Source of the DNA: an uncultured Lentisphaerales bacterium
GTDB lineage: Bacteria > Verrucomicrobiota > Lentisphaeria > JABSQK01 > UBA12247
Length of the DNA stretch: 64,000 nucleotides
Reading direction: 5' to 3'
Assembly: GCA_943788985.1 (NCBI GenBank)
Contig: CALSSJ010000015.1
Span: 95,098 to 159,097 of the forward strand
The notes under the pieces are model-generated. The model made no database searches. It was not told the DNA's origin and saw only the letters and a list, made by a program, of their open reading frames with translations. Below, piece after piece: positions 5,678 to 61,261 of this stretch; positions within the stretch are counted from its first letter, which is position 1, and every line of letters begins with the position of its first letter. Both the position numbers and the translations under genes were made by a program.

Positions 5678-6967
5678 TTAGCGTTGGCTGAGGGCTCCTC
5701 GGAGGGCGTTGACGGTGCGGTCTACGGCACCGCGCTGAGAGCGGACGACGTCGAGGGCAGCCTGGCCCAGCCGGGCGCGTTCTGCGGAATCCGCAAGTAG
5801 GTGAGCTAGCTGCTTTTGCAGGTCCGCAGTGTCCTGGACCTGGACCGCTGCTTTGGCGTCCAGCAGGAGGTGGACGGTGGCTCGAAAATTCCCCATGTGA
5901 GGCCCGAAGAGAATTGGCTTGGCCAGCGCGGCTGGCTCGATCACGTTCTGGCCGCCCATCGCGGGGCCAAGACTCTTGCCGACGAAGACCAAATCCGCTG
6001 CCGAGAGATAGGACAGCAGCTCGCCGGTGGTGTCGCCGAGAAGTACGTCGACTGGCCCCTTGGGCAGGCCCTCGCTGAGCCGGGCGAGTTTTTCGAGCCC
6101 AAGCTCTTCGATCAATTCTGGGGTGCGCTCGGCATGGCGCGGGACGATCAGTAGGCGCAGGTCTGGATGTGAATTTCGCAACTCTTGCCAGCAATGGACC
6201 AGCGCTGCCTCCTCACCTGCATGGGTGCTGGCACCGACCAGCAGAGTAAAGGAGTCGCCGAAGGCTGACTTCAATTGCTGGCGCAGGCCAGCCTGGGCCT
6301 CACTCGGGATGAGATCGTATTTCATCGTGCCGATGACGGTCGTTTTGGCCGCAAACTCGTCGAAGCGTCGCGCGTCTTCGACTGTTTGGGCGAGGACAAC
6401 GGTGACGTGAGAAAGCAGGTAGCGCACCACGCCGCCGAGGCGGAGAAAGCCCCGCAGGGAGTTGTCAGACATCCTCGCATTTGCGATGACCACTGGGACG
6501 CGTTGCGAACTCCGCAGAATCAGCTGGGGCCAGAGCTCGACCTCCATGATGACGAGCATGCGGGGCTCGATCTGGTCTAGGGTGCGATCGATTGCACTGG
6601 GCAGGTCGAGCGGCGCGTAGATGACCTCGCAGCCGTCTGGGGCGCGCTCGCGCGCGAGTCGCTGGGCGGTATTGGTGGTGGTCGAGATGACAAAGGGCCG
6701 GCGGCGATCCACCGCTCGCCAGGCGTCGATCAAGAGCAGCGCTGCGTTCAATTCGCCGACGCTCACTGCATGGATCCAGATGGGGCGTGTCAGGTCGCGC
6801 AGCTGTGATCGCTTGTGATGCGAGAAGTAGCCGCGGCGCTCGCCGATGGTCTCAAGCTCGCCACCACGACGCTGGAGCTTCCGCCGGTAGAAGGGCCAGT
6901 AAAGGGCGTATGCGACGGGGTAGAAGCAGGAGTAGAACAGAAGGAATAGCCGTGTGCCCAGACTCAT
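5678..6967 (-). CDS. waaA: 3-deoxy-D-manno-octulosonic acid (Kdo) transferase
   Basis: IWIHAVSVGE, EVELWP, NARMS, ASTHAGEE, IVPRHAER, DTTGEL, GGQNVIEPA. Confidence 0.93.
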   Translation of the reverse strand: MSLGTRLFLLFYSCFYPVAYALYWPFYRRKLQRRGGELETIGERRGYFSHHKRSQLRDLTRPIWIHAVSVGELNAALLLIDAWRAVDRRRPFVISTTTNTAQRLARERAPDGCEVIYAPLDLPSAIDRTLDQIEPRMLVIMEVELWPQLILRSSQRVPVVIANARMSDNSLRGFLRLGGVVRYLLSHVTVVLAQTVEDARRFDEFAAKTTVIGTMKYDLIPSEAQAGLRQQLKSAFGDSFTLLVGASTHAGEEAALVHCWQELRNSHPDLRLLIVPRHAERTPELIEELGLEKLARLSEGLPKGPVDVLLGDTTGELLSYLSAADLVFVGKSLGPAMGGQNVIEPAALAKPILFGPHMGNFRATVHLLLDAKAAVQVQDTADLQKQLAHLLADSAERARLGQAALDVVRSQRGAVDRTVNALRGALSQR

Positions 6968-7084
6968 CTTAGGAGAACTCTCAGTGCGAGCGTAAAAGCG
7001 ATTCGTACTGGTAGCGCCTGCCGGGCCTTGTGCTTAGAACGCGCTCGTAAATTACACGGGGCCTGGATGCACTATTGTATCACA

Positions 7085-8113
7085 CTAGCAGATGCGGGGG
7101 AGTTGCTCGCCGCGCAGGAGGTCGAGGACGCGAGTGGCGCCTAGCTCACTGGTGAGGGTAACGATCCCGCGGGGAGACTCGTTGACGGTGCCGATCAGGC
7201 AGGCCTCACAGCCGGCGTTGCGGAGTTCGCAAATTGCGGAGTCCGCAGATTCTGGGGCGACAATGGCGAGGAAGCGGCCTTCGTTGGCGAGATAGAGCGG
7301 ATCGAGGCCGAGGAGTTCGCTGGCGCCACGGACGGCGTCGGTGACGGGGATGGCCTGGGCGTTGAGCGAGAGTGAGCAGTTTGCGGAGTTCGCAATCTCG
7401 TTTGCAGCGCTGGCGAGGCCGCCGCGGGTGAGGTCGCGCAGGCAGTGCACCTCGACGTCGGAGGCGAGCACGGCTGCGATCGGGGCTGCGAGTGAGCAGA
7501 GATCGCTTTCGATGTTGGTCTCGAAGGCGATGCCTTCACGGGAGGCCATGACGGCGGTGGCGTGGCGGCCGAGGTCGCCACTGAGGATGAGGGCGTCGCC
7601 GGGACGGACGGAGCGGGGATGAATGTCGCTGCCGTGGTTGAGGGGGCCGATGCCGCTGGTGTTGATGTAGATGCCGTCGCACTTGCCGCGTTCGACGACT
7701 TTGGTGTCGCCAGTGACGATCTGTACGTCTGCTTCGCGGGCGGCGGTGGCGATGGATTCGATGATCCTGCGCAGCTTGGCCATGGGCAGGCCTTCTTCGA
7801 GGATGAGGCCGAGGCTGATGGCTTGGGGTGTGGCACCGCGCATGGCGAGATCGTTGACGGTGCCGAATACGGCCAGTCGGCCGATGTCACCGCCGGGAAA
7901 GAATATCGGCTTGACCACGAAGCTGTCGGTGGTGAAGGCGACGGGCCCGGCGATGTCCAGTGCTGCGGAGTCCGCATCGGCCTGCAGGCCGAGCCCGACG
8001 AAGGCTTCGGCAAAGACGGACTGGATGAGTTCGGCCATGAGCCGACCGCCACCGCCGTGGGCTTGGAGGATGGTGTCGCCGTGGTGGTGCTCGATGGGGC
8101 AGCTTAGGTTCAT
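7085..8113 (-). CDS. hypE: Hydrogenase maturation protein HypE
   Basis: [34 protein letters not shown]-terminal EQLPRIC. Confidence 0.96.
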
Positions 8114-9201
8114 AGCGCGACTCTCCGAAAGCGATAGTAGGCAGCGCAGGCGCCTTCATCGGAGACCATCGGCGCGCCCAGCGGGGAGTCGGGTGTGCAG
8201 CGGGTGCCGAAGGCGGTACAGGCGGTGGGTTTGCAGCGGCCCTGGAGGACCTCGCCGGCGATGCACTCGGCGGGTTCGGGGACGGTGCCGCCGTTGAGGC
8301 CAAAGCGTTGTTCGGCGTCAAACTGCGCGTATTCGGCGCGCAGCACGAGGCCACTCTGCGGGATCTCGCCAATGCCGCGCCAGGTCTGTGCAGCAGGCTC
8401 GAAGACGGTCTCGAGAATGGAGCGGGCGGTGGGGTTGCCGTCGTCTCGTGCGGATCTGGCGTAGCAATTGCGCACGGTGGCTTCGCCTGCTTCGAGCTGG
8501 CGCACGCACTCGAGGATGCCATCAAGAATGTCGAGCGGTTCGAAGCCGGTGACGGCAATGGGGACGTGGTAGCGAGCGGCGATGGGTAGGTACTCGGCGG
8601 AGCCGGTGATGGTGCAGACGTGCCCGGCGGCCAGGAATGCCTGGACCCGTGCTTCGTCATGACTGAGGATGGCTTCGATCGCTGGCGGGACGAGGACCTG
8701 AGAGACGAGGGCGCTATAGTTGGTCAGGTTCTGGCGGGCGGCTTGAAAGATGGCCATGGCGTTGGGCGGCGCGGTGGTTTCGAAGCCAATGGCAAAGAAC
8801 ACGATCTGGCGGTCGGGATTCTCGGCGGCGACGGTGAGCGCATCGAGCGGTGAGTAGACGATGCGCACATCAGCGCCCTGGGCGCGGACGGTGAGCAGGT
8901 CGGTCGCGGAGCCAGGGACCCGCAGCATGTCGCCGAAGGAACAGAGGATGACGTCTGGCCGCCGGGCGAGGGCGATAGCGGCGTCGATCTTGCCGAGCGG
9001 GGTGACGCAGACGGGACAGCCGGGGCCGTGTAGCAGCTCGATGCCGTCGGGCAAGAGGTCCTGAATGCCATAGCGCATGATGGCGTGGGTCTGCCCGCCG
9101 CAAATCTCCATGATGGTCCATGGCTGGGTTGCGGACGCCGCAATTTTTGCGGCGATTTTCTTGGCGGTCTCGCAATCTCGATACTCGTCCAGATACTTCA
9201 C
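8110..9201 (-). CDS. hypD: Hydrogenase maturation protein HypD
   Basis: [38 protein letters not shown]. Confidence 0.96.
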
Positions 9202-9443
9202 GGAAGCGGCTCCTGGAACTCCCCGAGCTCCTCAAAGGTGTCGAAGATGCGGGCGGCCTCGTCTTCGTCGATGGTGCTGATGGCGAAGCCGACGTGAACG
9301 AGCACGTGGTCGTCTACTTGCGCCTCGGGGGTAAATGCGAGATTGACGGTCTTGACGATCCCGCCGAAGCTGACGCGCCCGGCACGTAGCAGCGGGTCGG
9401 TCTCGGTGAGCTCAATAATTCTACCTGGGATGGCTAAACACAT
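9198..9443 (-). CDS. hypC: Hydrogenase assembly chaperone HypC
   Basis: MCLAIPG start, VLVHVGFAI. Confidence 0.95.
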
Positions 9444-11614
9444 GGCAGGCCTCGGGTTCGGGAAGCGATGAGTTGGCCCACGGCGATACCGCCATCGTTC
9501 GGGGGGACAAGCTGAGGCCAATGTGGCGTAAATCGGGCGTGACGCAAGCTGGCTATTGCCTCGGTAAGTAGCGAGCGGTTTTGGAAGCAGCCGCCGGAGA
9601 GGAGCACGTCTGGTAGCGCTTGGGCCTGAGCGATTTGGACGATGAGGGCGACGAGCGCCCGATGAAACCGCGCGGCGATGGTCCCAGTGGCGGTGCCGGC
9701 ATCGAGGTCGGCGCAGATCGCCCGGATGAGCGGCCGCCAGTCGGCTTGCATGCCGTCGAGCGTGATTGGGTAGGTGTCCTGACCAGGACTAATGGCGTGC
9801 TCCAAGGCCATAGCCGCATGGCCCTCGTATTCTACTTTTTTGATGAGGCCGATGAGGGCGCTGACGGCGTCGAACAGGCGGCCCATGGCACTGCATTGTG
9901 GCGAGTTTAGCCCGGTCGCTAGCTGGGTGTCGAGGATGTGAGTTGCGGACTTCGCAAATCCCAGACGGTGGCAGGGGAGGCCACAGCTTCGCAGCAGGGC
10001 ATAGGCAATACGGTCAGGGGATTGAATGGCTGCCTCGCCGCCGAGCAACGGGAATGGCCGCAAGGTGCTCACGCGCTCACAAAAGCGGTCGCGAATGACA
10101 AAGCTTTCGCCGCCCCAGATGGTCCCGTCATGGCCGTAGCCGGTGCCATCCCAGATGATGGCGAGGCAGGGCTGGGTGAGGCTGTGCTCGGCTACGCCGG
10201 CCCAGGCGTGTGCCTCATGATGCTGGACGCGGACGGTGGGCCTGTCGAGGCGCTCCGCCTCGAGGGTGGTGGCGTAGTCTGGGTGAAGGTCGCAGACAAC
10301 GGTGGGGTGGGCGGGAGCGATGCGATCTCGAAGCTGCTCGTGGGTCTGTCGGGTTGCCAGGGTAGTGAGGTCGCCGATGTGTTGGCTGAGGACGATGCGG
10401 TCACCGCGAGAAGCCGCGAGGGTGTTCTTGAGCTGGCCACCAAGCGCGAGCACGGGCCCGCCAGGTGGCGCGTGGAAGGGGATTGCCTGGGGATAGCCCC
10501 GGGCTCGGCGGATGAGGGTGGCCTTTTCGTCGATGACGATGACGATGGAGTCGTCGAGCGGCTCGACGATGTCGCGGTTGTGCATCAGCCAGGCGTCTGC
10601 GATCTGCGCAAGGCGCGCGATGGCTTCGTCGTTGCTGATGCAGATGGTCTCACCAGAGACGTTGCCGCTGGTGGCGATGAGCGGGCGTTGGAGTTGGTCG
10701 AGCAGCAGGTGGTGAAGGGGGGTGCAGGGAAGCATGGCGCCGATGTGGCTGGATGCGCAACGATGCCGCGGGCGTAGGAGGACGATGGGGGCGGCGGGTG
10801 AGCTGAGAATGGCGCGCTCGCTGGGGGTGACCTGGCAGTGGCGCTCGATGGCTGCTAAATCTGGATAGAGGATCGCCAGCGGTTTGGAGCTGCGACGTTT
10901 GCGCAGGCGTAGGCGCTCGACTGCCTGCGGGTTCTGGGCGTCGACCATGAGTTGGAAGCCGCCTATGCCTTTGAAGGCGAGGATCTGGCCAGCTTCGAGG
11001 GTGGCGCAGGCCGCCTCGAGTGGATTGCCGCCGTGGGGGCCCCGGTAGTGGAGGCTTGGCCCGCAAGTGGGACAGGCGTTGGTCTGGGAGTGAAACCTGC
11101 GGTCGGTGGGGCTGCGTGTTTCGCTCTGGCAAGCAAGACATTGGGCGAAGGCGGACATGGAGGAGGAGGCGCGATCCCACGGCAGTTCCAAGCAGATACT
11201 CTGGCGTGGCCCGCACTGGGTGCAGCTAATGAAGGAATAGCCGTGGCGCCGATCGGCAGGATTGCGGAGTTCGCAAAGGCAGGCGGGGCAGGTGGCGAGG
11301 TCGGGGGGGAGGTCGGTGGTGATGGCACCATCGGTGCTCTGGAGGATCCGAAAGTCGCTGGCATGGCGTGGGGGGGCGGGGGTGATGGTTACGCTGGTGA
11401 TGTGCGCGTGCTGCGGTGGTCGCTGCTGGAGGTTATCGGCAAACGCCCGCAGGGCAGCGGGCGCGCCCTCGACGGTAATCGAGAGGCCGTCTGCGGTGTT
11501 GCGCACTTGGCCACAGAGCTGGAGCTGGGTGGCTTGGGTGTGAATCCATGGCCGAAAGCCGACGCCCTGGACCACGCCAGTGACGCGGACATCGCAGCTC
11601 TGGATTTCACTCAT
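9434..11614 (-). CDS. hypF: Carbamoyltransferase HypF
   Basis: Acylphosphatase GVVQGVGFRP, Zn fingers, KGIGGF, TSGN, QHHEAH, DGTGYG, LSGGCFQN, PPNDGG. Confidence 0.95.
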   Translation of the reverse strand: MSEIQSCDVRVTGVVQGVGFRPWIHTQATQLQLCGQVRNTADGLSITVEGAPAALRAFADNLQQRPPQHAHITSVTITPAPPRHASDFRILQSTDGAITTDLPPDLATCPACLCELRNPADRRHGYSFISCTQCGPRQSICLELPWDRASSSMSAFAQCLACQSETRSPTDRRFHSQTNACPTCGPSLHYRGPHGGNPLEAACATLEAGQILAFKGIGGFQLMVDAQNPQAVERLRLRKRRSSKPLAILYPDLAAIERHCQVTPSERAILSSPAAPIVLLRPRHRCASSHIGAMLPCTPLHHLLLDQLQRPLIATSGNVSGETICISNDEAIARLAQIADAWLMHNRDIVEPLDDSIVIVIDEKATLIRRARGYPQAIPFHAPPGGPVLALGGQLKNTLAASRGDRIVLSQHIGDLTTLATRQTHEQLRDRIAPAHPTVVCDLHPDYATTLEAERLDRPTVRVQHHEAHAWAGVAEHSLTQPCLAIIWDGTGYGHDGTIWGGESFVIRDRFCERVSTLRPFPLLGGEAAIQSPDRIAYALLRSCGLPCHRLGFAKSATHILDTQLATGLNSPQCSAMGRLFDAVSALIGLIKKVEYEGHAAMALEHAISPGQDTYPITLDGMQADWRPLIRAICADLDAGTATGTIAARFHRALVALIVQIAQAQALPDVLLSGGCFQNRSLLTEAIASLRHARFTPHWPQLVPPNDGGIAVGQLIASRTRGLPCV

Positions 11615-11638: not shown

Positions 11639-12046
11639 TCATGCATCTTTTGCGATCTCCGCAATGACGGCCTGGGCGGCTTGGAGAACTGCTGGCGAGA
11701 GGTCTTGACCAAGGTCGAATGTCTGGCCTTCGATGCCGTAGAGGCGCAGGTCGGTAGGGAGTTGGCCGAGGGCGCGTAGACGCTCAATGGCCTCGGCAAT
11801 GTTGAAGTCGCCGGGGATGGTGGTTCGGTGGGCGTCGATGCGGTGAATAGTGCCCGGTTCGTGCTGAAGGGGCACGGCGTGTACCAGGCAGGCTTTTGGG
11901 TGGGCCTGTAGTAGCTCAAGGAGTTCTGTGCCCTCTGCAGAGACTTCGGTGACGATGAGGCCGGGCCGCAAGTGCGCGACGGCCCTAGCTAGGTAATGGC
12001 CGACACCATCGTCGCTGCGCAGTCTGTTGCCAACGCTGATGATCAT
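11639..12046 (-). CDS. Hydrogenase maturation protease-like protein (degenerate)
   Basis: GNRLRSDDGVG, LYGIEG, LSPAV; usual VDA reads VHA and the STH segment is absent. Confidence 0.8.
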   Translation of the reverse strand: MIISVGNRLRSDDGVGHYLARAVAHLRPGLIVTEVSAEGTELLELLQAHPKACLVHAVPLQHEPGTIHRIDAHRTTIPGDFNIAEAIERLRALGQLPTDLRLYGIEGQTFDLGQDLSPAVLQAAQAVIAEIAKDA

Positions 12047-12148: not shown

Positions 12149-13156
12149 TTACTGATCTGCATCGGGGGTGGAGAGTTCCTCGAGGACTTCGAGGTAGTTC
12201 GCGCGCTCGAAGTCGCCGGGGGTGGCCGAGGCGGATCTGCTCAGCAAGCCCTGGAGGCTTCGTACTGACTCGTGCCCATAGTCGAGAATCAGCTCCTCCA
12301 AGCTCTCGCGCAGGACGCGCACCTGATCTACGCCATGACGAAGCAGAGAGCCCGCCACCATGACAGCATCTGCACCTACGAGGAGATACTTCATGACCTG
12401 CTCGGCGGTTTCGACGCCGCGTCCGCCTGCGAGAGAGCAGATGATCATGTCGCGAAGCATCCCGATCCAGAGTAGCGGCAGGCGAATCTCATCGGGAGTG
12501 CTGGGGGCGAGATTGCGGTCGACCGATAGCCGGCTGAGGTCAATGTCTGGCTGGTAGAAGCGATTAAACAGCACGAGTGAATCTGCCCCTGCTGCATCGA
12601 AGCGGATTGCGATGTTCGCAAAGGATGTAAAGAACGGACTCAGCTTGAGGGCTATTGGGATATTTACGGCGCGCTTGACAGTCTTGAGGGTATCGAGATA
12701 CTGGCTCTCGATATTCACGGCGGGCTGGTCGGGGTCGGCTGCGACCCGGTAGAGGTTGAGTTCCACAGCATCGGCGCCGGCTTGTTCGATTTGTCTGGCG
12801 TAGTTTGCCCAGCCTTGGAAGGTGCAGCCATTCAGGCTGGCGATGATTGGGATGTCCACGGCCTGTTTGGCCGCGACAATGTGGGAGAGATACTGGTCTG
12901 GACCCACGGGCCTGGCGATGGGAGGCAGATACCTTGCTGCCTCGGCGGGTGCATTACCTGCGAGATCCAGGGCGCGGGCGACTGCGGCACGATCGCGCGA
13001 GACTTGCTCCTCGAACAGGGAGTAGAGCACGACTGCTCCGGCCCCTGCGTCCTCCATTTTTTTGATGCTGTCGAGCGAGCGTGAGAGCGGGCACGCCGAT
13101 ACGATGATCGGGCAGCTCAATTCGAGATTCATATAACGTGTTGAAAGATCGGTCAT
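12149..13156 (-). CDS. Dihydroorotate dehydrogenase-like flavoprotein
   Basis: GAGAVVLYSLFEEQ, IPIIASLNG, KLSPFF, LVLFNRFYQPDID; RBS AGGAG before ATG 13156. Confidence 0.88.
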   Translation of the reverse strand: MTDLSTRYMNLELSCPIIVSACPLSRSLDSIKKMEDAGAGAVVLYSLFEEQVSRDRAAVARALDLAGNAPAEAARYLPPIARPVGPDQYLSHIVAAKQAVDIPIIASLNGCTFQGWANYARQIEQAGADAVELNLYRVAADPDQPAVNIESQYLDTLKTVKRAVNIPIALKLSPFFTSFANIAIRFDAAGADSLVLFNRFYQPDIDLSRLSVDRNLAPSTPDEIRLPLLWIGMLRDMIICSLAGGRGVETAEQVMKYLLVGADAVMVAGSLLRHGVDQVRVLRESLEELILDYGHESVRSLQGLLSRSASATPGDFERANYLEVLEELSTPDADQ

Positions 13157-30104: not shown

Positions 30105-30133
30105 CTGTAACTAGAAATCTTTTTCTTGAGGTT

Positions 30134-42714: not shown

Positions 42715-43632
42715 TCACTTCCTGCCAGCAACGCAGGTCCCGACGCGAACCTTCCCAGTCACTGGCGGGCGACCGGCCGTGATCACCATTACAGGGCCGC
42801 AATCGGTCTCGAGCCAGAGCTCAAAGCGGCTGCCGATTTGCCGCATCTCACGAACCGTCAGGCCGTCGTCCGCTGCTGTGATGGTCAGTTCCTCCGGCCG
42901 GTACAGGCCGCGGTGGTCCTCGATCTCCAGCGCTGCGCGAGCTTCTGCTGGCAGGCTGGTGCAAGGGCCCAGCAGGCACGCAGCGTCCAGATTGGCTGGA
43001 TTTTGGTACAGTTCGAGTGGGGGAGCGGATCCCACCACCGCCCCTTGCAGGAGGCAGATTGCGAAGTCCGCAAAGCCAAAAACTTCGTCTGCGCGGTGGG
43101 TCGAGAAGATGATGTGTCCCTGGCGCTTCTCCCGCCAGCGCACGAGCAGTTCCCAGCAGCGGTTGGCCGTCGCGCTGTCTGTGCTCGAAAACGGCTCATC
43201 CAGAACCAGCACATCCGGATCGGCCGCAACCGCACGGGCAGTCGCCAGTCGCGCAGCCTGTCCGAGCGACAGCCGCTCAGGGATTGTGTGTGCGAACTCC
43301 GCAAGGCCAAAGCCTGCCAGCAACTCCTGTGCCTGCGCGCGATCGGGCGCGGGCATGACGTACAAAAGGTGATCGATCGCGCTAATCCCCGGCCAACTAC
43401 CCTGATCCTGCGGCATCCAGAATATGCGATTTCCACACCAGTCGACCGTTCCCGACCGCGGCCGCTCGAATCCGACCAGTAGGCTCAGGAGTGTGCTCTT
43501 TCCCGCGCCAGACTCTCCGATCACAGCCGTGACACCCGGCGGAAACTCGAGTGTGGTTGGGAACAGGCGATCGCGAATTTCGAGGCCCGCAACGCGACAG
43601 ATTGGGGGCATTAACAATCTGTCGATGTACAC
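42715..43632 (-). CDS. ABC transporter ATP-binding protein
   Basis: GESGAGKST, LSLGQ, VLDEPFS, STH. Confidence 0.88.
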   Translation of the reverse strand: MYIDRLLMPPICRVAGLEIRDRLFPTTLEFPPGVTAVIGESGAGKSTLLSLLVGFERPRSGTVDWCGNRIFWMPQDQGSWPGISAIDHLLYVMPAPDRAQAQELLAGFGLAEFAHTIPERLSLGQAARLATARAVAADPDVLVLDEPFSSTDSATANRCWELLVRWREKRQGHIIFSTHRADEVFGFADFAICLLQGAVVGSAPPLELYQNPANLDAACLLGPCTSLPAEARAALEIEDHRGLYRPEELTITAADDGLTVREMRQIGSRFELWLETDCGPVMVITAGRPPVTGKVRVGTCVAGRK

Positions 43633-49463: not shown

Positions 49464-50427
49464 TCTCGAGATTCTCGGGCAGGTTTCCCAGCGGCACATC
49501 GCCGTTATCGGGGACATGATGGTGGACCGCTACATTTGGGGGAAAACCTCACGCATCAGCGAAGAAGCGCCCGTTCCCGTCGTCCAAGTTCAGTCGCGCA
49601 GCGAGACGCTCGGCGGCGCGGCCAATGTCTTGCGCAATCTCGCCTGTCTGGGCGCTCGCACCTCAGCATTTGGGGCCGTAGGCCAGGATCCGGGCGGGGA
49701 CTCATTTGCCGCGCTGTGCGCCGAGGATGGTATCGACACCCGTGGCATCGTGATCACCCCTGAGCGCCCGACCACGCGCAAGTCACGCGTCGTCTGTGGT
49801 CGCCAGCAAATGCTGCGGCTGGATGACGAGGTCACCAGCGCCATCGCCGTCGAGACCACGGCTGAGATCTGCGCACGATTCGAAGCGCTCCTTGCCGAAG
49901 ATCCGCCCGACGCGGTGATCATCGAAGATTACTGCAAGGGCTGCGTGAGCCAGGAACTGGCTGGTCACGTGGTCGCGATTGCGAACTCCGCAGGCATCGC
50001 TGTGGCGCTGGACCCGCATCCGGGAAACCGGCTGTGGGTCCGAGACCTAGTGTTGCTCAAACCCAACTGTGCCGAGGCCTACGCTATGGCGAACTTGCCG
50101 GCTGAAGCGCCGCTGGAGGCTGTCGTGCAGACGCTGCTCGAGCGCTGGCAGGCCAAGAATCTCTTGATCACCCTAGGCCGTCGCGGCATGGCCCTGGCCC
50201 AAGAGGACGGCACGCTTGCATACATCGCCACTGCGCCGCGGGAAGTGTTCGATGTCTCCGGGGCTGGAGATACCTCGATCGCTACGTTTGTGGCTTGCCT
50301 CGCCTCGGGTGCCTCGCCGTTGCAGGCTGCGAACATCGCAAACGAAGCCGGTGGCGTGGTCGTCACCCACGTAGGCACGGTACCGATCACGCTTTGCGAA
50401 CTCCGCAATGCCCTTGCCGTCAGTTAG
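49456..50427 (+). CDS. rfaE1: D-glycero-beta-D-manno-heptose-7-phosphate kinase (HldE/RfaE domain I)
   Basis: GDMMVDRY, RISEEAPVPV, GGAANV, DYCKG, VFDVSGAGDT. Confidence 0.9.
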   Translation: MNNLEILGQVSQRHIAVIGDMMVDRYIWGKTSRISEEAPVPVVQVQSRSETLGGAANVLRNLACLGARTSAFGAVGQDPGGDSFAALCAEDGIDTRGIVITPERPTTRKSRVVCGRQQMLRLDDEVTSAIAVETTAEICARFEALLAEDPPDAVIIEDYCKGCVSQELAGHVVAIANSAGIAVALDPHPGNRLWVRDLVLLKPNCAEAYAMANLPAEAPLEAVVQTLLERWQAKNLLITLGRRGMALAQEDGTLAYIATAPREVFDVSGAGDTSIATFVACLASGASPLQAANIANEAGGVVVTHVGTVPITLCELRNALAVS

Positions 50428-51268
50428 CCGCCGTATGTTTCTCGCGGCTGGTTCCGCTGCTAGCGCAGCCGCCGCAAGTGGAGGGGAGCGTCTGCCGTTC
50501 TTCCGCAATGCGGACTACCACGTGCGCGAACTGCCGAGCCCACGCGAAGCCCTGTTAGGCTACTCGGTTTATCACGAGTTTGATGTCGACCCACGCAAGA
50601 CTGCGGAGTCCGCTGCGAACTTCGCAGCCCCAACCTGGAACCTGGAAGTGCGCGGCAAGGTGGGCAAGACGCTTCGTCTGAATGCCGGTGACCTTGTCTC
50701 GATGTTCCCGCTCGAGGAGCGCGTCTATCGGTTTCGCACCATCACGGGAGTCGGCATGGTCGTCCCCTGGCTTGGCTTTCCACTCGAGTTGCTGCTTGAC
50801 CGAGCGGCGGTCAGCGCCGATGCGAAGTTCGCAACCTTCACCTCGCTTCAAGATCCAGAGCAGCTGCCGAACCAACGCCCGGACAGCGGCCTGGGACTGG
50901 ACTGGCCGTATCGCGAAAGTCTGACGCTCGCCGAGGCGAGCCACCCGCTCGCCTTTCTTGCCGTAGGCGTGTACGGCTATCGGCTGCCCGCGCATTTCGG
51001 CGCTCCGGTACGCCTGATTGTCCCTTGGAAGTACAGCTACAAAGGCCCAAATGCGGTAGTCTCGATCGAGCTTTCGAGCGAGCGCCCTGCCTCCACCTGG
51101 GAGACGGCACTGCCGCATGAATACGAGTTTTCGGGAAATGTTGATCCGGCTCGCCCGCATCCTCGCTGGGGGCAGGGAACCGAACGCCGCTTAGACCGCG
51201 CTGGCCGCTGGCGCTCGCTGCCATACAACGGCTACGGCAAAGATGTGCAGGACCTGTATCCGGGCTAA
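50408..51268 (+). CDS. MsrP/YedY-like Tat-exported protein lacking the Mo-ligand Cys
   Basis: Tat SRRMFL; LEERVYRFR, VPWLGFPL, WPYRESL, GAPVRLIVPWKY, NVDP..PHPRW, YNGYG. Confidence 0.8.
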   Translation: MPLPSVSRRMFLAAGSAASAAAASGGERLPFFRNADYHVRELPSPREALLGYSVYHEFDVDPRKTAESAANFAAPTWNLEVRGKVGKTLRLNAGDLVSMFPLEERVYRFRTITGVGMVVPWLGFPLELLLDRAAVSADAKFATFTSLQDPEQLPNQRPDSGLGLDWPYRESLTLAEASHPLAFLAVGVYGYRLPAHFGAPVRLIVPWKYSYKGPNAVVSIELSSERPASTWETALPHEYEFSGNVDPARPHPRWGQGTERRLDRAGRWRSLPYNGYGKDVQDLYPG

Positions 51269-51666: not shown

Positions 51667-51956
51667 AGGAATACGGCTCCGACAAGTGGCTCCACAGACT
51701 GTTGAATCAGAGCATCTGCGACCGAAGCTTCGATCGGCGCTACGCTCACCGACCACACGGCTACGATGACCAGGAGGCTGGCCGCCGCGGCGATGAATTG
51801 CCAGAGCAGCAGGTCAGGTTTTGCGGACTCCGCAACCGGCTGTTGCAGCGCCTTCAGGACGTCGTCCTCCCAGCCGGGCTGCGTGGGCGGTGGCTCGGAG
51901 GCCAGCTGCCACGCTGCGCGAAAGCGTGCCTCAGAATCAGGGCTATCGTTACTCAT
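51663..51956 (-). CDS. Putative anti-sigma factor
   Basis: Small single-TM protein overlapping the ECF sigma stop. Confidence 0.55.
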   Translation of the reverse strand: MSNDSPDSEARFRAAWQLASEPPPTQPGWEDDVLKALQQPVAESAKPDLLLWQFIAAAASLLVIVAVWSVSVAPIEASVADALIQQSVEPLVGAVFL

Positions 51957-52588: not shown

Positions 52589-52604
52589 GCCTACGGAAGG
52601 TTCA

Positions 52605-53888: not shown

Positions 53889-54259
53889 CGGCGCTGGTCA
53901 TCGTTGATCATGGAAGCAAGCGCGAGGCTGCCAATCGCATGCTGCAGCAGATGTGTGAGCTGGTGCTAGGTCAGGCCGCCGGCCGCTACATGTGCGTGCG
54001 TCCGGCACACATGGAATTGGCGGAACCCACTTTGGGCCAGGCGATCGATGCCTGCGTGGCAGATGGTGCGACCACGGTGATCATCAGCCTGCTATTTCTC
54101 GCGCCAGGCCGCCATGCGACCGCGGATATCCCGGCGCTGGTTGCGGAGTCCGCAACGGCTCACCCGGGGCTCGAGATCCACCTCGCGGAGCCATTGGGGC
54201 TGGACGCACTGCTCGCAGATTTGCTTATCAAACGCGCGGATCAGGCGCGTTCGGGATAA
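53885..54259 (+). CDS. CbiX/SirB-type short chelatase
   Basis: VDHGS, AHMELAEP, FLAPGRH, DIP, AEPLG. Confidence 0.88.
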   Translation: MTALVIVDHGSKREAANRMLQQMCELVLGQAAGRYMCVRPAHMELAEPTLGQAIDACVADGATTVIISLLFLAPGRHATADIPALVAESATAHPGLEIHLAEPLGLDALLADLLIKRADQARSG

Positions 54260-54285: not shown

Positions 54286-56424
54286 ATGCCGACGCCGATG
54301 CACAAGTTGATCGGACGCAGTATTTTACTATCAGGAACAGATCCGGAGCAGAAGCGCGAAGAGCTGCGCGCTTATTTTCACCGCACATTCACGCTCTACG
54401 AGCGGCTGTTCGAGACGCTGGTGGCGGAGGACGCCTATTACGAGCGGCCGGAGCCTTTGCGCCACCCGTTGATCTTTTACTACGGGCATACCGCTACGTT
54501 CTTTGTCAATAAGCTAATTTTGGCTAAGGCCATTCCGCAGCGGATTAATCCGCGGTTCGAAGCGATGTTCGCGATCGGGGTCGACGAGATGAGCTGGGAT
54601 GACCTGAATGACGCGCACTATCAATGGCCCCGCGTCGAGGACGTCCGGGCCTATCGCAACCAGGTGCGTGAGCTGGTGGACGCAGTGATCTCTGAGCAGG
54701 ACCTGTCGCTGCCGATTCACTGGGATACGTTTGTGCCATGGACGATCTGCATGGGGATCGAGCACGAGCGCATTCATCTTGAGACCAGCTCCGTACTGAT
54801 CCGGCAGTTGGACGTTCGCTGGGTGCAGCCGCACGCGGACTGGCCTATCTGCACGGACAGCGGAGAAGCTCCAGAGAACGTCATGCAGCCAGTTCCCGCC
54901 GGGACCGTCGATATCGGCAAACAGCGTTCGGATGGGCTCTATGGGTGGGATAATGAATATGGCACGCACCGGGCCGAAGTTGCGGAGTTCGCAGCCTCGA
55001 AGTACCTGATCAGCAATCAAGAATTCCGCGGCTTCATGGATGCTGGCGGCTACCAAACGCCAGAATGGTGGACCGAGGAAGGGCGCAATTGGCTCGCATT
55101 CAGCGGGCGCGAGTACCCGATTTTCTGGTTGAAGGATGGGGCAGGGAACTATCGCTTCCGGACCATGCTGCAGGAGATTGAGATGCCGTGGGATTGGCCG
55201 GCAGAGGTGAACTATCTCGAGGCCAAGGCGTTCTGTAAGTGGCGCGCCACCGTTACGGGGCACCTTGTGCGGTTGCCCACCGAAGATGAGTGGCACCGCT
55301 TGCACGACAGCTGTGGAATTCCGGATCAGCCGGATTGGCCAGAGACGGTCCCGTTCAATATCAACCTGGAGCATGGGGCCTCTTCGGTGCCCGTGAACCG
55401 CCATGAGCTGGGTGGTTTCTGTGACGTGATCGGCAATGTCTGGCAATGGACGGAGACGCCCATTCACGGGTTCGATGGATTCGAGGTGCATCCGCTCTAT
55501 GATGATTTCTCGAGCCCCACCTTCGATAATCAGCATAACTTGATCAAGGGCGGGTCCTGGATCGCCACCGGAAATGAAGCGACACGTTTGGGCCGCTATG
55601 CGTTTCGGCGGCACTTTTTTCAGCACGTCGGCTTTCGTCTGGTCGAAGGAGAGGAGCTGCCGCCTTTAGCCGAATTGCCGAACGAGGACTATGAGACCGA
55701 CGCCGCAGTTTCTCAGTACTGCGAATTCCACTACGGAGCCAGCTGCTTCGGCGTGCCAAATTTCCCGGAGGCGGTGGTTCAGCATGTGCTGGACCATCAC
55801 ATGGGCGGGACCGAGCGCGCGTTGGATCTTGGCTGTGCAGTTGGGCGGGGCACCTTTGAGCTGGCCCGAGTCTTTGAGCAAGCGACCGGCATCGATTTCT
55901 CGGCGCGATTCATTCGGCAGGCAATTTCTCTGCAAGAGCACGGCTTCGTCAGCTACGCAATCTGCGATGAAGGCAGTCTCACCAGTGCTCGTGAGTACAC
56001 GCTCGAGGATCTTGGGCTGCTCGGACTCGAGACCAAAGTGACGTTCTGTCAAGGCGATGCGCACAACCTGCGACCGCAATTTAGCGACTACGACCTGATC
56101 ACTGCGGTGAATCTGATCGACCGCTTGTACGAGCCACAAAAGTTTTTGGAAAGCCTGCACGAGCGGTTGCGCCCTGGCGGGACTTTGGCGATTACGTCTC
56201 CTTATACATGGCTGGAGGAATACACGGCTCCCGAGAACTGGCTGGGGGGCTTTACCCGGGACGGCGAGGCGGTCACGACGCTGGACGCCCTGCGCCAGAT
56301 TCTAAGCCCGCGTTTTGAGCCGATCACAGATCCGATCGATGTGCCGTTTGTGATTCGCGAGACGGCGCGCAAGCACCAACACACGGTCAGCCACCTCACG
56401 CTATGGCGGCGCCGCGATGTCTGA
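54286..56424 (+). CDS. ovoA: Ovothiol synthase: 5-histidylcysteine sulfoxide synthase plus methyltransferase
   Basis: LRHPLIFYYGHTATFFVNKL, GVDEMSWDD, HERIHLETSSVL, YGWDNEYG, RYAFRRHFFQHVGFR, SAM motif LDLGCAVGR. Confidence 0.93.
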   Translation: MPTPMHKLIGRSILLSGTDPEQKREELRAYFHRTFTLYERLFETLVAEDAYYERPEPLRHPLIFYYGHTATFFVNKLILAKAIPQRINPRFEAMFAIGVDEMSWDDLNDAHYQWPRVEDVRAYRNQVRELVDAVISEQDLSLPIHWDTFVPWTICMGIEHERIHLETSSVLIRQLDVRWVQPHADWPICTDSGEAPENVMQPVPAGTVDIGKQRSDGLYGWDNEYGTHRAEVAEFAASKYLISNQEFRGFMDAGGYQTPEWWTEEGRNWLAFSGREYPIFWLKDGAGNYRFRTMLQEIEMPWDWPAEVNYLEAKAFCKWRATVTGHLVRLPTEDEWHRLHDSCGIPDQPDWPETVPFNINLEHGASSVPVNRHELGGFCDVIGNVWQWTETPIHGFDGFEVHPLYDDFSSPTFDNQHNLIKGGSWIATGNEATRLGRYAFRRHFFQHVGFRLVEGEELPPLAELPNEDYETDAAVSQYCEFHYGASCFGVPNFPEAVVQHVLDHHMGGTERALDLGCAVGRGTFELARVFEQATGIDFSARFIRQAISLQEHGFVSYAICDEGSLTSAREYTLEDLGLLGLETKVTFCQGDAHNLRPQFSDYDLITAVNLIDRLYEPQKFLESLHERLRPGGTLAITSPYTWLEEYTAPENWLGGFTRDGEAVTTLDALRQILSPRFEPITDPIDVPFVIRETARKHQHTVSHLTLWRRRDV

Positions 56425-57433
56425 AGATCGCTACAGTCGGCAGGTGCGCTTTTCCGGAATCGGGGAGAGCGGTCAGCAAAAGCTGGTGGAGGCGTCGGTG
56501 CTGCTGGTGGGCTGCGGTGGATTGGGTACCGTGCTGGCGGACATGCTGGGCCGGGCGGGGATCGGCAAGCTGCACATCATCGACCGCGACTATGTGGAGC
56601 TCAGTAACCTGCAACGACAGATGCTGTTTACGACGGCCGATGCCACCGAGCGGTTGCCCAAAGCCGCTGCAGCCCGCGACCGGCTGGCTCTGATCAACCC
56701 GGAGATCACCGTGGAAGCCACCATCGGTGAGTTTTCGGCAGCCTGCGCGGACGAGTTGGTGGCGGATGCGTCGCTGGTGATCGACGGTACGGACAATCTT
56801 GGGACGCGGTATTTGATCAACGACGCCTGCGTCGCGGCAGGCAAGCCGTGGATCTATGGGGCGGCCGTGGGCAGCTCCGGAATGGCCATGTCGATCACGC
56901 CAGGGGCTTCGCCTTGCTTTCGCTGCATTTTCCCTGAAGCGCCCCGAGCCGGAAGCGCCCAGACCTGTGATACTGCGGGCGTGCTCTCGCCCATCCTGCA
57001 CCAGGTCGCTGCGCAACAGGCAACGCTGGCCTTTCAGCTGCTGACCGGTGACCACGGTCAGACCGGGCAGTTGTTTCAGTTTGATTGTTGGACCGGTCAG
57101 TTTGATCGGCTAGATCTGCGCACCGCGAAGAACCCAGAATGTGTGTGTTGCGGACTTCGCAACTTCGAGCATCTCGATGCAGTTGCGCGGGAGACCACGA
57201 CTTCGTTGTGCGGGCGGAATGCCATTCAGATTGCGCCGGCGACACCGGATGCGGTGGATCTGGCGGCCCTAGCCGAGCGGTTGCGCCGTTCTGGAAGAGT
57301 GACCGAGAATCCATACTTGCTCAGCTTCGCAGGGGATGGCGTGTCCTTTACGGTGTTTCGCGATGGCCGCGCCGTAGTGCATGAAACCACCGATGCTGTC
57401 GTGGCGAGAGGTATTCGAGATCGCTACGTCTGA
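56417..57433 (+). CDS. ThiF/MoeB family adenylyltransferase
   Basis: RYSRQ, GCGGLG, DRDYVELSNLQRQ, DGTDN, CFRC, CDTAGV. Confidence 0.92.
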   Translation: MSEDRYSRQVRFSGIGESGQQKLVEASVLLVGCGGLGTVLADMLGRAGIGKLHIIDRDYVELSNLQRQMLFTTADATERLPKAAAARDRLALINPEITVEATIGEFSAACADELVADASLVIDGTDNLGTRYLINDACVAAGKPWIYGAAVGSSGMAMSITPGASPCFRCIFPEAPRAGSAQTCDTAGVLSPILHQVAAQQATLAFQLLTGDHGQTGQLFQFDCWTGQFDRLDLRTAKNPECVCCGLRNFEHLDAVARETTTSLCGRNAIQIAPATPDAVDLAALAERLRRSGRVTENPYLLSFAGDGVSFTVFRDGRAVVHETTDAVVARGIRDRYV

Positions 57434-58438: not shown

Positions 58439-59999
58439 GACGGCCAAGCAGTGCTGCGATGTCCGCATTGCCTGTGGCTTCGCCGCGCTCGTCTTCTTCA
58501 CCTACGCCTATAATTATCATGGCGCGACGTGGAACCAGAACTCGCGCTTTGATATGGTCTTTACCACGGTTGAGCCGAGTTCGGCTGAGCAGCCGCTATT
58601 CGCGATCGATCGCTTTCTGCCCGCGCCGGACTTGGGCCTGAATACCGGCGATTGGTCGTACTACCCGGGAACCTGCCGCCAGACCGAGAAAGGCTGGCTC
58701 GGTGAAGGCGGGCATTACTATTCGAACAAGGCCCCGGGCCCGGCGTTGCTGGGCATCATCGCCTACGGAATCCTGCATCCGCTAGAGAGAAGCCTCGGAA
58801 TGCACCCGGATCAGCCGGGGGTGGCGCTGGCAAACGCCTACCTGATTCACCTCTGGGCCACAGTGTTGCCACTTACACTGGCCGCACTGGCGGCCTATCA
58901 GCTATTGTTGAACCTGACAAAGCAGGATCGAAAGCGAACCTTTCTCGGCATGCTGGCATTGTTCTGGGGGAGCCTGCTGTGGCCCTACGCGAGTCAGTTT
59001 TGGGGCCATGCGACCGCGGCGGCGTTCGTGATCATTGGCCTATGGGGCTTTATGAAGCCGCCCGGCTGGCTGCAGGCCCTATCCGGCTTGGCTATCGGCC
59101 TCGCTGTGCTCTGCGAATACTCGTGCGCGTTCTTCGTGATCGGCATGTGCGTGACGCGAGCCGTCCAGCGCGACTGGTGCAGCCTGGGGCTGCTGTTGGC
59201 AGGCGGGTTGATCCCGTTCTCCCTGTTTGCCTGGTATCACTGGATTTGCTTCGGAAACCCGCTGGCGGTGGCCAATCTCTACAACAACCCCGGGTTTCGC
59301 GATACAGGCGCTGTTGGTGGACTGTTCAGTACGGTCGATCCAGAGGCGATTGTGGGCCTGACGGTTTCGCCAGACAAGGGCTTGTTCCTGCTGATGCCGG
59401 TGCTGGGCATCGCGATCCCGGCGCTTTATCTGCGCGCTCGCGAACGGCTGGCCACTGCGTTGGAATGGCTGTGTGCCGGCACCATCGCAGCCTTCTTCAT
59501 TATGAACATCTCCTTCAACGGCTGGCATGGCGGGATGTGCATCGGGCCTCGCTATCAGATCCCGGTATTACCCGCGTACATTCTGCTTCTCGTCTTGCTT
59601 CCACAGCATCGCTTGGCGACTCTCGCACTGGCGACGGGCACCGCGATCTCAGTCTGCAACATGCTGGTTGTGACCTTAATCACGCCGCTCGGGTTCGACC
59701 GTTCGAGTACATCCCTGCAGGTCTGTTATGAGTCCGTAGGCCAGATGCTGTTCCAAGGAAAGAACATGCTGCATCCTTACCAGGGCCCGATTCGGCTGCA
59801 GGCTGTAGAGACGCGCTTGGGAGATTGGGAGTGTTTCAACTGGGGCGAGTTGGCCTCGCTAGAAGGGCGCAGCTCGGTGCTGCCGCTACTCTTTGTCTTT
59901 GGCGCCAGCCTCTACCTGCTCTGGCGCGATTCCGCGCGCGAACCGCAGGGAGAAAACGATAAGGCGCTTGAGACTTGTGATCAGGGGCATCCCGGCTAG
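58422..59999 (+). CDS. Polytopic membrane protein, possibly a GT-C-fold glycosyltransferase
   Basis: Many TM segments; NQNSRFD, YYSNKAPG, GWHGG..IGPRY. Confidence 0.6.
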   Translation: MGPIFKTAKQCCDVRIACGFAALVFFTYAYNYHGATWNQNSRFDMVFTTVEPSSAEQPLFAIDRFLPAPDLGLNTGDWSYYPGTCRQTEKGWLGEGGHYYSNKAPGPALLGIIAYGILHPLERSLGMHPDQPGVALANAYLIHLWATVLPLTLAALAAYQLLLNLTKQDRKRTFLGMLALFWGSLLWPYASQFWGHATAAAFVIIGLWGFMKPPGWLQALSGLAIGLAVLCEYSCAFFVIGMCVTRAVQRDWCSLGLLLAGGLIPFSLFAWYHWICFGNPLAVANLYNNPGFRDTGAVGGLFSTVDPEAIVGLTVSPDKGLFLLMPVLGIAIPALYLRARERLATALEWLCAGTIAAFFIMNISFNGWHGGMCIGPRYQIPVLPAYILLLVLLPQHRLATLALATGTAISVCNMLVVTLITPLGFDRSSTSLQVCYESVGQMLFQGKNMLHPYQGPIRLQAVETRLGDWECFNWGELASLEGRSSVLPLLFVFGASLYLLWRDSAREPQGENDKALETCDQGHPG

Positions 60000-60090
60000 G
60001 TTGCACTGTTTTAGCAATAGGGCTGAACGGCCTGGCCTGCGATCGGCCAGCTGCACGCTCCTACTCACTGCTTCGGAGCATGAATCGACG

Positions 60091-60375
60091 ATGGTGGATA
60101 CAAAAGCAAACTGCGACAGGCACGGGGAGCAGGAATTAGCAATTGCCTGCATTCATGTGTGCCGATCTCTGGACAGCCGCGACGATGTCGGCTTTTATTG
60201 GGACCCCGACTCGAACGGTGCCCGGCACGATGCCTGGTGTCACGCTTGCGAGCAATGGTCGCTGGCCAACCCAGACGAATCGCCTGAGGTCTGGATGAAG
60301 GTTACAGAGTTTCAATTTCTATGTGTTCGGTGTTGGGACGAGGCCAAAGCGCGCTATACTCAGCCGAAATCTTGA
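60091..60375 (+). CDS. Small Cys-rich hypothetical protein (putative Zn-binding)
   Basis: CDRHG, CIHVC, WCHACE, LCVRCWD. Confidence 0.6.
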   Translation: MVDTKANCDRHGEQELAIACIHVCRSLDSRDDVGFYWDPDSNGARHDAWCHACEQWSLANPDESPEVWMKVTEFQFLCVRCWDEAKARYTQPKS

Positions 60376-60431
60376 TCAGCTAGAAAAACCTGTCTTAAGC
60401 CAGGGGATTTTATCCTTTAGATCCTGTCTCT

Positions 60432-61261
60432 GTGCGTGGTTGTGAAGAAACCGACAGAATATTGCGTCCGCATTTTCGATGCGACCAGACGGGCGCTCGA
60501 CGCTGGAGTCAACTACATCGACGTTTCCCCGCTTACGAAGTGACCAAGGCCAAGACCGTCCTCGGAAAGGCTCTCAAAACCGTAACCCGCGATCGCTACA
60601 TCCTGGCGACCAAGGTTGGCCAGTACGATCACTGCGTCTTCGACTTCTCCGCCGAGCGCGTCACCCGTAGCGTTGAAGAAAGCATGCAGCGGCTAAACGT
60701 AGACTACATCGACCTAATTCAGGTGCATGACATCGAATATGCGGAGCCCGCACTGATTCTAGGCGAAACCGTACCCGCCCTCCAGAAGCTCAATCAAGCT
60801 GGGAGGATTGGGCACATCGGCATTACCGGCCTGCCGTTAACCGGGCTGCGCAAGCTGGTGGCCGAAGCAGGCCACGGGGCAATCGAGACCATCCTATTCT
60901 TCTGCCCCTACACGTTGCAGGATGACGCATCGCCGGTATCCATGGGCTTGCACACCGAGCGCGGGGCGCCGGACTTGGCCCCCGTCCAGCCCAACCGTGC
61001 AGAAGACCGTGCGCCAGGCGATTGCTTCCTGCCAGGCTGCTGGCATCAACATCGTCGAGCTGGCGGTTCAGTAATCCGTTGCAAATCCAGACATTGCAAC
61101 CACAGTTGTTGGCTCAGCGAACCCCGATAATATGCTGGCGAATATTCGCTACGCGCAGCCCCCGATCGATGAAGACCATCTGCAGTTCGTGTGCGAGGCA
61201 CTTGAGCCTGTGCGTAATTGAAACTACACCCGCGGACTCGCCCAAAACCGTGATACCCTGA
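60432..61261 (+). pseudogene. Aldo/keto reductase (L-galactose/L-fucose dehydrogenase-like), frameshifted
   Basis: GVNYIDVSP, ILATKVG, FDFSAERVTRSVEESMQRLNVDYIDLIQVHDIE, spread over different frames. Confidence 0.8.

Follow-up and report, generated by a model that had tools for sequence, protein, structure and literature searches.

We analysed a 64-kb window of DNA (64,000 nucleotides of contig CALSSJ010000015.1; positions are counted from its first base), in which a short palindromic word, TGCG[AG]A[CG]T[CT]CGCA (TGCGRASTYCGCA), recurs inside unrelated genes. Genes were assigned by profile searches of the window with Pfam (at 1e-5 and 0.05) and, for open reading frames (ORFs) left unassigned, with NCBIfam. 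They comprise waaA, hypE, hypD and hypF, a hydrogenase maturation protease gene, asnB, mutM, a polyprenyl synthase gene, acpS, nnr, lipB and pnp, as well as clpP, a pfkB-family kinase gene, an MsrP-like gene, an ovoA-like gene, a ThiF-family gene and cysE. They bear out the gene names given in an earlier note on this DNA. The copies of the word, their reading phases and the features of a word-free stretch at the start of the window are collected in Table 1.

A recount gave exactly 30 copies of the exact word, at the starts implied by the earlier note, and its example, TGTTGCGGAGTCCGCAACA at 26802, is present. All 15 one-mismatch copies that it listed were found, together with a sixteenth, at 29072, that was missing from its list. 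Two of its statements had to be corrected. The GC content, judged by eye to be about 62%, is 59.5% over the window, and the exact copies do not all lie in coding sequence: 29 of the 30 do, and the copy at 51822 is intergenic, in the 196 bp that separate the sigma-factor gene from orf163. The 29 genic copies are distributed over 17 genes, with 13 copies in minus-strand and 16 in plus-strand genes. Between positions 5,701 and 64,000 the density is 0.51 exact copies per kb.

The word is strongly over-represented. In 100 dinucleotide-preserving shuffles the mean was 0.02 copies and the maximum 1, so that none reached 30. The number of copies expected from Markov models trained on the window was 0.02-0.04 for orders 1-4 and rose to 0.2 for order 5 and 0.96 for order 6; the excess over the low-order models is about 1,400-fold. 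Allowing up to two mismatches, 57 sites were observed (30 exact, 16 with one mismatch and 11 with two) against 8.4 expected; the two-mismatch sites are thus at about chance level, and the excess consists of exact and one-mismatch copies. A k-mer scan of the window pointed to the same element, as the top 15 of the 10-mers listed and all seven 12-mers listed were pieces of the word.

The spacing between the two arms is specific: TGCG-N5-CGCA occurs 46 times, and the N3, N4, N6 and N7 spacings occur 4, 1, 1 and 5 times, respectively. In nine of the 16 one-mismatch copies the deviating base is the A or T next to the centre, in four it is an outermost base, and only rarely does it fall in the GCG/CGC arms. 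The T...A flanks that had been described around many copies proved to be a real preference over the 30 exact copies, with T at -1 in 22 and A at +1 in 19; G stands at -2 in 17, and past +/-2 the flanks of these copies carry no information. The fuller consensus is GTTGCGRASTYCGCAAC, which holds about 24 bits over 13-17 bp relative to the composition of the window, and the word with its flanks can also be written (GT)TGCGRASTYCGCA(AC). Side-by-side copies are found at 7219-7247 in hypE, 16 bp apart centre to centre, and at 50602-50626 in the MsrP-like gene, 12 bp apart, and this spacing is inconsistent. Two further palindromes, AAGTACTT (count 8 over both strands) and CCAAGCTTGG (count 6), show a mild over-representation, of 9.4-fold and 22.7-fold, respectively, against an order-3 Markov model over the whole window.

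Table 1. Copies of the word in the 64-kb window, with the genes and reading phases in which they lie, and features of the word-free stretch
Feature	Position	Location	Phase (peptide)	Remark
Exact copy	6504..6516	waaA (- gene)	1	
Exact copy	7219..7231	hypE (- gene)	0 (CELRN)	tandem with 7235 copy
Exact copy	7235..7247	hypE	2 (ADSA)	
Exact copy	7382..7394	hypE	2 (ANSA)	
Exact copy	7964..7976	hypE	2 (ADSA)	Ala vs His in 114/117 homologues
Exact copy	9944..9956	hypF (- gene)	2	
Exact copy	11263..11275	hypF	0 (CELRN)	
Exact copy	18986..18998	GT4 glycosyltransferase (- gene)	2	
Exact copy	20696..20708	asnB (- gene)	1	
Exact copy	20899..20911	asnB	2	
Exact copy	21717..21729	S9 peptidase-like gene (+)	2	
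Exact copy	25369..25381	mutM (+)	2	
Exact copy	25730..25742	mutM	0	
Exact copy	26573..26585	polyprenyl synthase (+)	1	
Exact copy	26805..26817	polyprenyl synthase	2	core of 19-nt perfect palindrome 26802-26820
Exact copy	27879..27891	acpS (+)	1	
Exact copy	28614..28626	nnr (+)	2 (VAESAG)	family-variable stretch
Exact copy	29376..29388	nnr	2 (VAESAI)	
Exact copy	33781..33793	lipB-like gene (-)	2	
Exact copy	43060..43072	ABC ATPase gene (-)	2	
Exact copy	43291..43303	ABC ATPase gene (-)	2	
Exact copy	45231..45243	pnp (+)	2 (VAEFAT)	last Ala vs Cys in 94/119 homologues
Exact copy	49980..49992	pfkB-family kinase (+)	2	
Exact copy	50395..50407	pfkB-family kinase	0 (CELRN)	
Exact copy	50614..50626	MsrP-like molybdopterin oxidoreductase (+)	2	abuts one-mismatch copy 50602
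Exact copy	50821..50833	MsrP-like gene	2	
Exact copy	51822..51834	intergenic, sigma-factor gene / orf163 spacer		
Exact copy	54142..54154	ovoA-like gene (+)	0 (CGVRN)	
Exact copy	54981..54993	ovoA-like gene	2	
Exact copy	57149..57161	ThiF-family gene (+)	0	
One-mismatch copy	5783..5795			centre A
One-mismatch copy	9130..9142			
One-mismatch copy	11651..11663			A to T beside centre
One-mismatch copy	12608..12620			A to T beside centre
One-mismatch copy	20757..20769			last base
One-mismatch copy	25960..25972			first base
One-mismatch copy	29031..29043	nnr		
One-mismatch copy	29072..29084	nnr		over invariant LTPH peptide
One-mismatch copy	37922..37934			last base
One-mismatch copy	39671..39683			T to A beside centre
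One-mismatch copy	41817..41829			
One-mismatch copy	48545..48557			T to A beside centre
One-mismatch copy	50328..50340			T to A beside centre
One-mismatch copy	50602..50614			one-base overlap with exact copy 50614
One-mismatch copy	58455..58467			A to T beside centre
One-mismatch copy	60740..60752			
Word-free lower-GC stretch	1..5700			GC 0.515 vs 0.602 in the rest; IS91-family transposase, IS66 TnpA-like ORF, DUF3050, sulfatase fragment
IS91-family transposase	59-1396			
IS66 TnpA-like ORF	1900-2223	minus strand		
DUF3050 ORF	3076-3846			GC 0.41

Coding constraints do not account for these copies. Synonymous codons were shuffled within each gene in 300 runs, which kept every protein and the codon usage of every gene. 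The mean was 1.72 copies and the maximum 5; since one unshuffled intergenic copy is included, about 0.7 copies arise in this control, against the 29 genic copies observed. Shuffling of codon order gave 1.01 copies. The word is a DNA-level signal embedded in unrelated genes, which bears out what the earlier note had claimed, and in the window, the Markov and codon-preserving controls that it had proposed both lie far below the 30 copies found.

All three reading frames are used, and they leave an imprint on the proteins. Nineteen copies lie in phase 2 (nnT GCG RAS TYC GCA) and encode Ala-[Glu/Asp/Asn/Lys]-[Ser/Phe]-Ala, six lie in phase 0 and encode Cys-[Glu/Gly]-[Leu/Val]-Arg-Asn/Lys, and four lie in phase 1. 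The pattern A[EDNK][SF]A was found 25 times in the proteins of the window against 3.1 (sd 1.9) in residue-shuffled proteins, an enrichment of about 8-fold, and 19 of these 25 peptides are spelled by the exact word. C[EG][LV]R was found 6 times against 0.5 in shuffled proteins. Four control tetrapeptide patterns were not enriched in the same proteins (16 vs 11.3, 3 vs 3.3, 3 vs 2.3 and 3 vs 2.4). GCA accounts for 18% of the Ala codons, TCC for 22% of the Ser codons and GTT for 13% of the Val codons; the DNA retains the word in spite of codon preference and, in part, of protein conservation.

For three proteins the sites were placed in alignments, of HypE with 119 homologues (120 sequences with its own), of Nnr with 120 and of PNPase with 119 (120 with its own). 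Seven sites were aligned (four in HypE, two in Nnr and one in PNPase), and the residues encoded by the word match homologue positions without insertions or deletions (indels). The word thus arose by point substitution, in whichever reading frame tolerates it. In HypE the family consensus AERALEILR is altered at the double site of the window, and EIA[EQ][AT]A is replaced by EIANSA; similarly, AVAEFA stands for AV.E[FY]C in PNPase, and SVAESA for LAAEAA in Nnr. At 7964-7976 in HypE the two nearest homologues also have no His. Over the three proteins pooled (29 residues), the match with homologues was 0.38 at word-encoded residues and 0.51 elsewhere (one-sided Mann-Whitney P = 0.036), and the word-encoded residues sit in more variable alignment columns.

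The symmetric positions of the word were then compared over the 30 exact copies. Mirror positions 4/8 form a Watson-Crick pair in 14 copies, against 15.6 when the bases are re-dealt, positions -1/+13 in 16 against 15.3, and positions -2/+14 in 12 against 9.6. None of the five mirror-position pairs tested showed covariation, no Watson-Crick P being below 0.18. The counts of the four R/Y combinations, 10, 8, 8 and 4, are those that half-sites varying independently at 60% G should give. On the sense strand, the 16 asymmetric copies carry a wobble-compatible G..T in eight cases and an A..C mismatch in the other eight. The anatomy is that of a pair of half-sites, TTGCGRA, which vary independently on either side of a single central S base. 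Because the half-sites vary independently, a symmetric dimeric protein that binds double-stranded DNA is favoured over a selected hairpin, in line with the dimeric binder that had been suggested from the dyad symmetry, and both half-sites would be read on duplex DNA by a putative homodimer.

Beyond the window, we used as a control set the PNPase matches listed in a genome-contig search, which comprise 80 loci with 45-49% identity from distant phyla (Planctomycetota, Desulfobacterota, Acidobacteriota and others) and 1,265,163 bases, 47 of the 80 loci having a GC content of at least 0.55. No copy of the word was found in these 1,265,163 bases, and TGCG-N5-CGCA was 34 times rarer than in the window. 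Compared with the other phyla of the control loci, the word is specific to the lineage. The nearest named homologues, with 60-65% identity for PNPase and 38-49% for Nnr, are labelled Lentisphaeria, Lentisphaerae, Lentisphaerales or Kiritimatiellae, and apart from near-identical proteins the identity to other relatives goes up to 80% for PNPase and to no more than 52% for Nnr. These names agree with the affiliation to the Planctomycetes-Verrucomicrobia-Chlamydiae (PVC) group considered earlier: by its protein homologues the host belongs to a sparsely sampled PVC lineage, probably Lentisphaerota.

Some of these relatives carry peptides compatible with the word. The HypE homologue P0002 (71% identity) reads AAESALCELRN at the double site of the window, where the family consensus differs, P0003 (67%) has CELRN, and the PNPase homologue P0242 (80%) keeps VAEFA. 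In these three proteins the word-compatible peptides, seen at the peptide level only, stand at the same sites as in the window; in the other 117 HypE homologues C[EG][LV]R averages 0.009 per protein. The Nnr homologue P0127 (46%) shows AAKSAG at a site of the window, and in addition VANSAI and PCGVRN at places where the residues of the window differ, which suggests that the genome of P0127 may accumulate the same word independently. Judged from these peptides, the word is probably shared by a small clade and extends beyond one contig. The proteins P0241 and P0121, from sources labelled ena or jgi, are 99-100% identical to those of the window and carry the same peptides. Between the Nnr protein P0121 (99%) and that of the window there are three differences, one of them a Ser/Phe exchange at the degenerate Y of a two-mismatch copy at 28101-28113. 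The PNPase of the window is itself unusual in length, with 817 aa (44500-46953) against about 700 aa in most homologues, which cover only 85% of it; the long form is common to few relatives (P0242, P0245, P0246 and P0248), and its C-terminal extension includes an acidic run, DKFDDDDD.

Within the window the copies follow the composition of the genes, their number and clustering tracking Ala and GC richness. Bases 1-5700 contain neither exact nor one-mismatch copies, although 2.9 exact copies, or 4.5 exact and one-mismatch copies, would be expected from the density of the rest. The Poisson P is about 0.05 for exact copies and about 0.01 for exact and one-mismatch copies together, and as this is one island only the support is weak. 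With its transposase-related ORFs and lower GC content (Table 1), this stretch is probably recently acquired DNA.

Several other features of the window were noted. The ORFs at 5034-5642 (202 aa) and 30101-30664 (187 aa) match only the first 56-70 of the 301 positions of Pfam Sulfatase and may be truncated or frameshifted sulfatase genes. The word is missing from two adjacent AIM24-family paralogues, at 14498-15193 and 15196-15873. In its longest ORF, the polyprenyl synthase gene shares 217 bases (25729-25945) with the end of mutM; the copy at 25730 falls inside this overlap, and the synthase probably starts further downstream. A tRNA-Leu (anticodon taa; 34761-34844, minus strand) was the sole RNA gene found by Rfam and tRNA scans of the window, and it is overlapped by a probably spurious ORF (34732-35007).

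On analogy with known systems, we would class the word as a highly iterated, dyad-symmetric duplex mark of the kind represented by the DNA uptake sequence (DUS), the uptake signal sequence (USS) and the highly iterated palindrome HIP1; it works like these elements and is at most a candidate member of either family. We give slightly less than an even chance to the proposal that it is an undescribed 'watermark' of an uncultured Lentisphaeria, 15-17 bp long, extrapolated to thousands of copies per genome, read by a homodimer, and marking self DNA for uptake, recombination or protection. That the word is a self-DNA tag comparable to USS, DUS and HIP1, accumulated through a transmission bias in uptake or recombination, is the explanation we prefer to its rivals, though we put it forward somewhat more tentatively still.

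Such a tag would require a homodimeric sequence-specific protein, encoded outside the window, that reads both half-sites, and DNA bearing the word would pass from cell to cell within the lineage more readily than other DNA. In natural transformation or recombination such DNA would be bound, taken up or processed with preference, which amounts to a molecular drive and may depend on methylation, as has been reported for HIP1. Over time the word would saturate native genes, while DNA of recent origin from outside would be devoid of it. Thousands of sites can hardly each be under strong selection, yet conserved residues are displaced, so that a transmission bias acting at each site would be a better explanation of the pattern than the sum of small benefits. 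Among such biases the one with the best documentation, and a conceivable one here, is the preferential uptake or processing of word-bearing DNA in transformation, as for USS and DUS.

Several points weigh against the self-DNA tag. The preference for drive over selection at each site is itself something we infer, and the abundance over the whole genome is extrapolated from 64 kb. Unlike the palindromic word described here, DUS and USS lack symmetry. Even spacing was rejected, as the copies are mildly clustered (gap coefficient of variation 1.27 vs 0.95 for random placement, P = 0.04). The footprints in relatives are at the peptide level only, and peptides at the same sites could reflect plain inheritance. 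Neither A[EDNK][SF]A nor C[EG][LV]R was found in the other 118 of the 119 PNPase homologues (55-71% identity), so that the clade with the word may be narrow; PNPase offers few tolerant positions. Finally, among the genes of the window the Pfam and NCBIfam searches revealed none for competence, a pilin, a methyltransferase or a plausible cognate DNA-binding protein, with the exceptions of an extracytoplasmic function (ECF)-type sigma factor and an S-adenosylmethionine (SAM)-dependent domain in the ovoA-like gene. The statement of the earlier note that no cognate protein can be assigned from the window therefore holds.

An unlikely alternative is that the word is a by-product of repair or methylation, with sites that have no individual function, as in Elhai's ratchet for HIP1, a model set out in PMC13756078 and PMC4390886. 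A methyltransferase site within the word (for example the central RASTY or GASTC, or the GCGR/YCGC arms) would be combined with a very-short-patch-like correction of near-matches. Spread by substitution without insertion would follow from such a process, as would the sharp fall from exact to one-mismatch to two-mismatch sites, and a conversion bias at each site would override codon preference and some conserved residues. However, with about 24 bits over 13-17 bp the word is far longer than short-patch contexts, which for Vsr-type repair are 4-6 bp. Conservation is lowest at the centre, where methylation would be expected: its R, S and Y positions are degenerate, and it is beside the centre that most one-mismatch copies deviate. 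Neither a methyltransferase nor a Vsr-like gene is visible in the window by Pfam and NCBIfam. For HIP1 itself, site conservation was argued to favour selection over repair (PMC5861425).

Rather less likely is that the copies are binding sites of an abundant chromosome-organising or nucleoid protein, analogous to matS/MatP, Noc, SlmA or a structural maintenance of chromosomes (SMC) loader, each selected for folding or segregation. Dyad symmetry with independent half-sites would fit such a dimeric DNA-binding protein. Known chromosome-organising systems have tens of sites per genome, however, whereas the density here is that of a word scattered over 17 unrelated genes. Selection at each of thousands of sites would also be very weak, yet residues conserved in 94/119 PNPase and 114/117 HypE sequences have been displaced. 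A role in chromosome structure has been proposed for HIP1 from its periodic spacing (PMC5861425), but no regular spacing of the copies was found within the 64 kb.

We consider it improbable that the word is a protective self-mark against the cell's own nuclease or defence system, of a Chi-like or anti-restriction type, foreign DNA without the word being degraded. Its absence from the transposase island and from the 80 unrelated loci would be in keeping with such a mark, and a Chi-like contribution has been suggested for HIP1 (10.1101/2024.09.10.611283). Against this, the Pfam and NCBIfam searches of the window revealed neither a nuclease gene nor a defence gene with a link to the word. Sites of the Chi type lack symmetry and show a strand skew, whereas the palindromic word has no orientation.

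A hairpin in mRNA or single-stranded DNA, read by an RNA- or single-stranded-DNA-binding factor, seems very improbable. As the word is palindromic, it is present in the transcript whichever strand the gene uses, and 29 of the 30 copies lie in transcribed coding sequence. Perfect copies are predicted to form hairpins with a 3-nt loop and a stem that reaches 8 bp at most (-7.6 to -8.2 kcal/mol for DNA and -10.5 kcal/mol for RNA), with z-scores of about -4 to -5. For the asymmetric copy at 49980, in contrast, the value is only -4.4 kcal/mol, and 32 of 200 shuffles did as well. Sense strands with an A.C mismatch are as common as those with G.U, which together with the lack of covariation does not favour a selected stem. 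A covarying RNA element was ruled out by the missing pair excess and by Rfam, of which no family matches the word, the sole match in the window being a tRNA.

Chance, peptide conservation, an assembly artefact or remnants of mobile elements have a negligible probability and were rejected even though just one 64-kb window was examined, since none of the 100 dinucleotide-preserving and 300 codon shuffles came near 30 copies, the copies lie in frame in 17 unrelated genes with neither indels relative to homologues nor flank information past +/-2, and the near-identical proteins P0241 and P0121, which come from other sources, carry the same peptides.

The earlier note knew of no motif that the sequence matches, and our literature search gave the same answer: we found no published description of the word, nor of any such word in Lentisphaerota, Kiritimatiellota or Verrucomicrobia. 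The exact strings appeared only as primers in eukaryote papers, subscription journals and supplements being outside the search. A search for 'highly iterated palindrome' with Verrucomicrobia returned nothing. Among the matches listed, there was no work on competence or uptake sequences in Lentisphaerae or Kiritimatiellota, and none on palindrome over-representation for Lentisphaer.

To our knowledge, hyper-abundant genomic words are rare, only DUS, USS and HIP1 have been studied in depth, and whether they originate by function or by drive is debated. If the word is a self-DNA tag, the PVC superphylum would have its first system of the USS, DUS or HIP kind, and the word would offer an independent test case from a different phylum, with a long, clearly dyad-symmetric word and a very strong protein imprint. 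Its architecture of two half-sites predicts a specific dimeric reader, which phylogenetic profiling or a pull-down might identify. The word would also hint at natural transformation, or another form of self-recognition, in Lentisphaerota, for which we know of no natural transformation. In practical terms, it biases codon and amino-acid usage and can mislead motif and selection scans; it could serve as a lineage marker for metagenome binning and could guide the design of transforming DNA. With conserved Cys and His residues replaced and an 8-fold tetrapeptide enrichment, the imprint on proteins would be stronger than the roughly 2-fold tripeptide effect given for USS and DUS (PMC2817400).

Among known repeats, REP/BIME (repetitive extragenic palindromic/bacterial interspersed mosaic elements) and MITE (miniature inverted-repeat transposable elements) resemble the word as abundant palindromic repeats. 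They were rejected as candidates, since they are extragenic, longer and inserted as blocks, while 29 of the 30 copies here are in frame in genes, with no conserved flanks and no indels. The sites matS and parS and those bound by Noc and SlmA are dyad-symmetric, 12-16 bp long and read by dimers; a genome has tens of them, restricted to chromosome domains. matS has 13 bp with an RNY centre, and the sequences of all four differ from the word. A site of this type was excluded by density, with 30 exact copies in 64 kb.

The likeness to DUS of Neisseriaceae and USS of Pasteurellaceae is closer. In each case a short word of about 20-25 bits recurs at about 0.5-1 copy per kb, and as with DUS and USS, the copies here lie in coding sequence, use several frames, enrich particular peptides and prefer less conserved positions. 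Findlay and Redfield (PMC2817400) give 1,471 USS and 1,892 DUS per genome, and report that tripeptide frequencies are doubled and that positions of poor conservation are preferred. According to the same paper, USS and DUS are missing from genes without homologues in relatives; here, the absence of the word from recently acquired DNA is a weaker counterpart, as it is seen in one 5.7-kb island. The differences are that the word is palindromic with a degenerate centre and unrelated in sequence, that its peptide effect is about 8-fold for tetrapeptides rather than about 2-fold for tripeptides, and that its lineage is PVC/Lentisphaeria whereas DUS and USS belong to Proteobacteria. In addition, 29/30 copies are coding, against 34.5-65% for USS and DUS (PMC2817400).

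HIP1 of cyanobacteria (GCGATCGC) is likewise a highly iterated palindrome that spreads by substitution without indels. It is an exact 8-mer with two known methyltransferase sites, whereas the word described here has 13-17 bp with three degenerate positions, arranged as two 7-bp half-sites around one base, with no methyltransferase site identified, and the nearest named homologues of the proteins in the window are from Lentisphaeria/Lentisphaerae and not Cyanobacteria. Its abundance is of the HIP1 type, non-coding DNA being represented by the single copy at 51822. HIP1 is over-represented 15- to 300-fold, with neither an RNA role nor a peptide role found (PMC5861425). It has been put forward as a phylum-wide uptake tag (PMC13756078), and recent work (10.1101/2024.09.10.611283) ties it to transformation.

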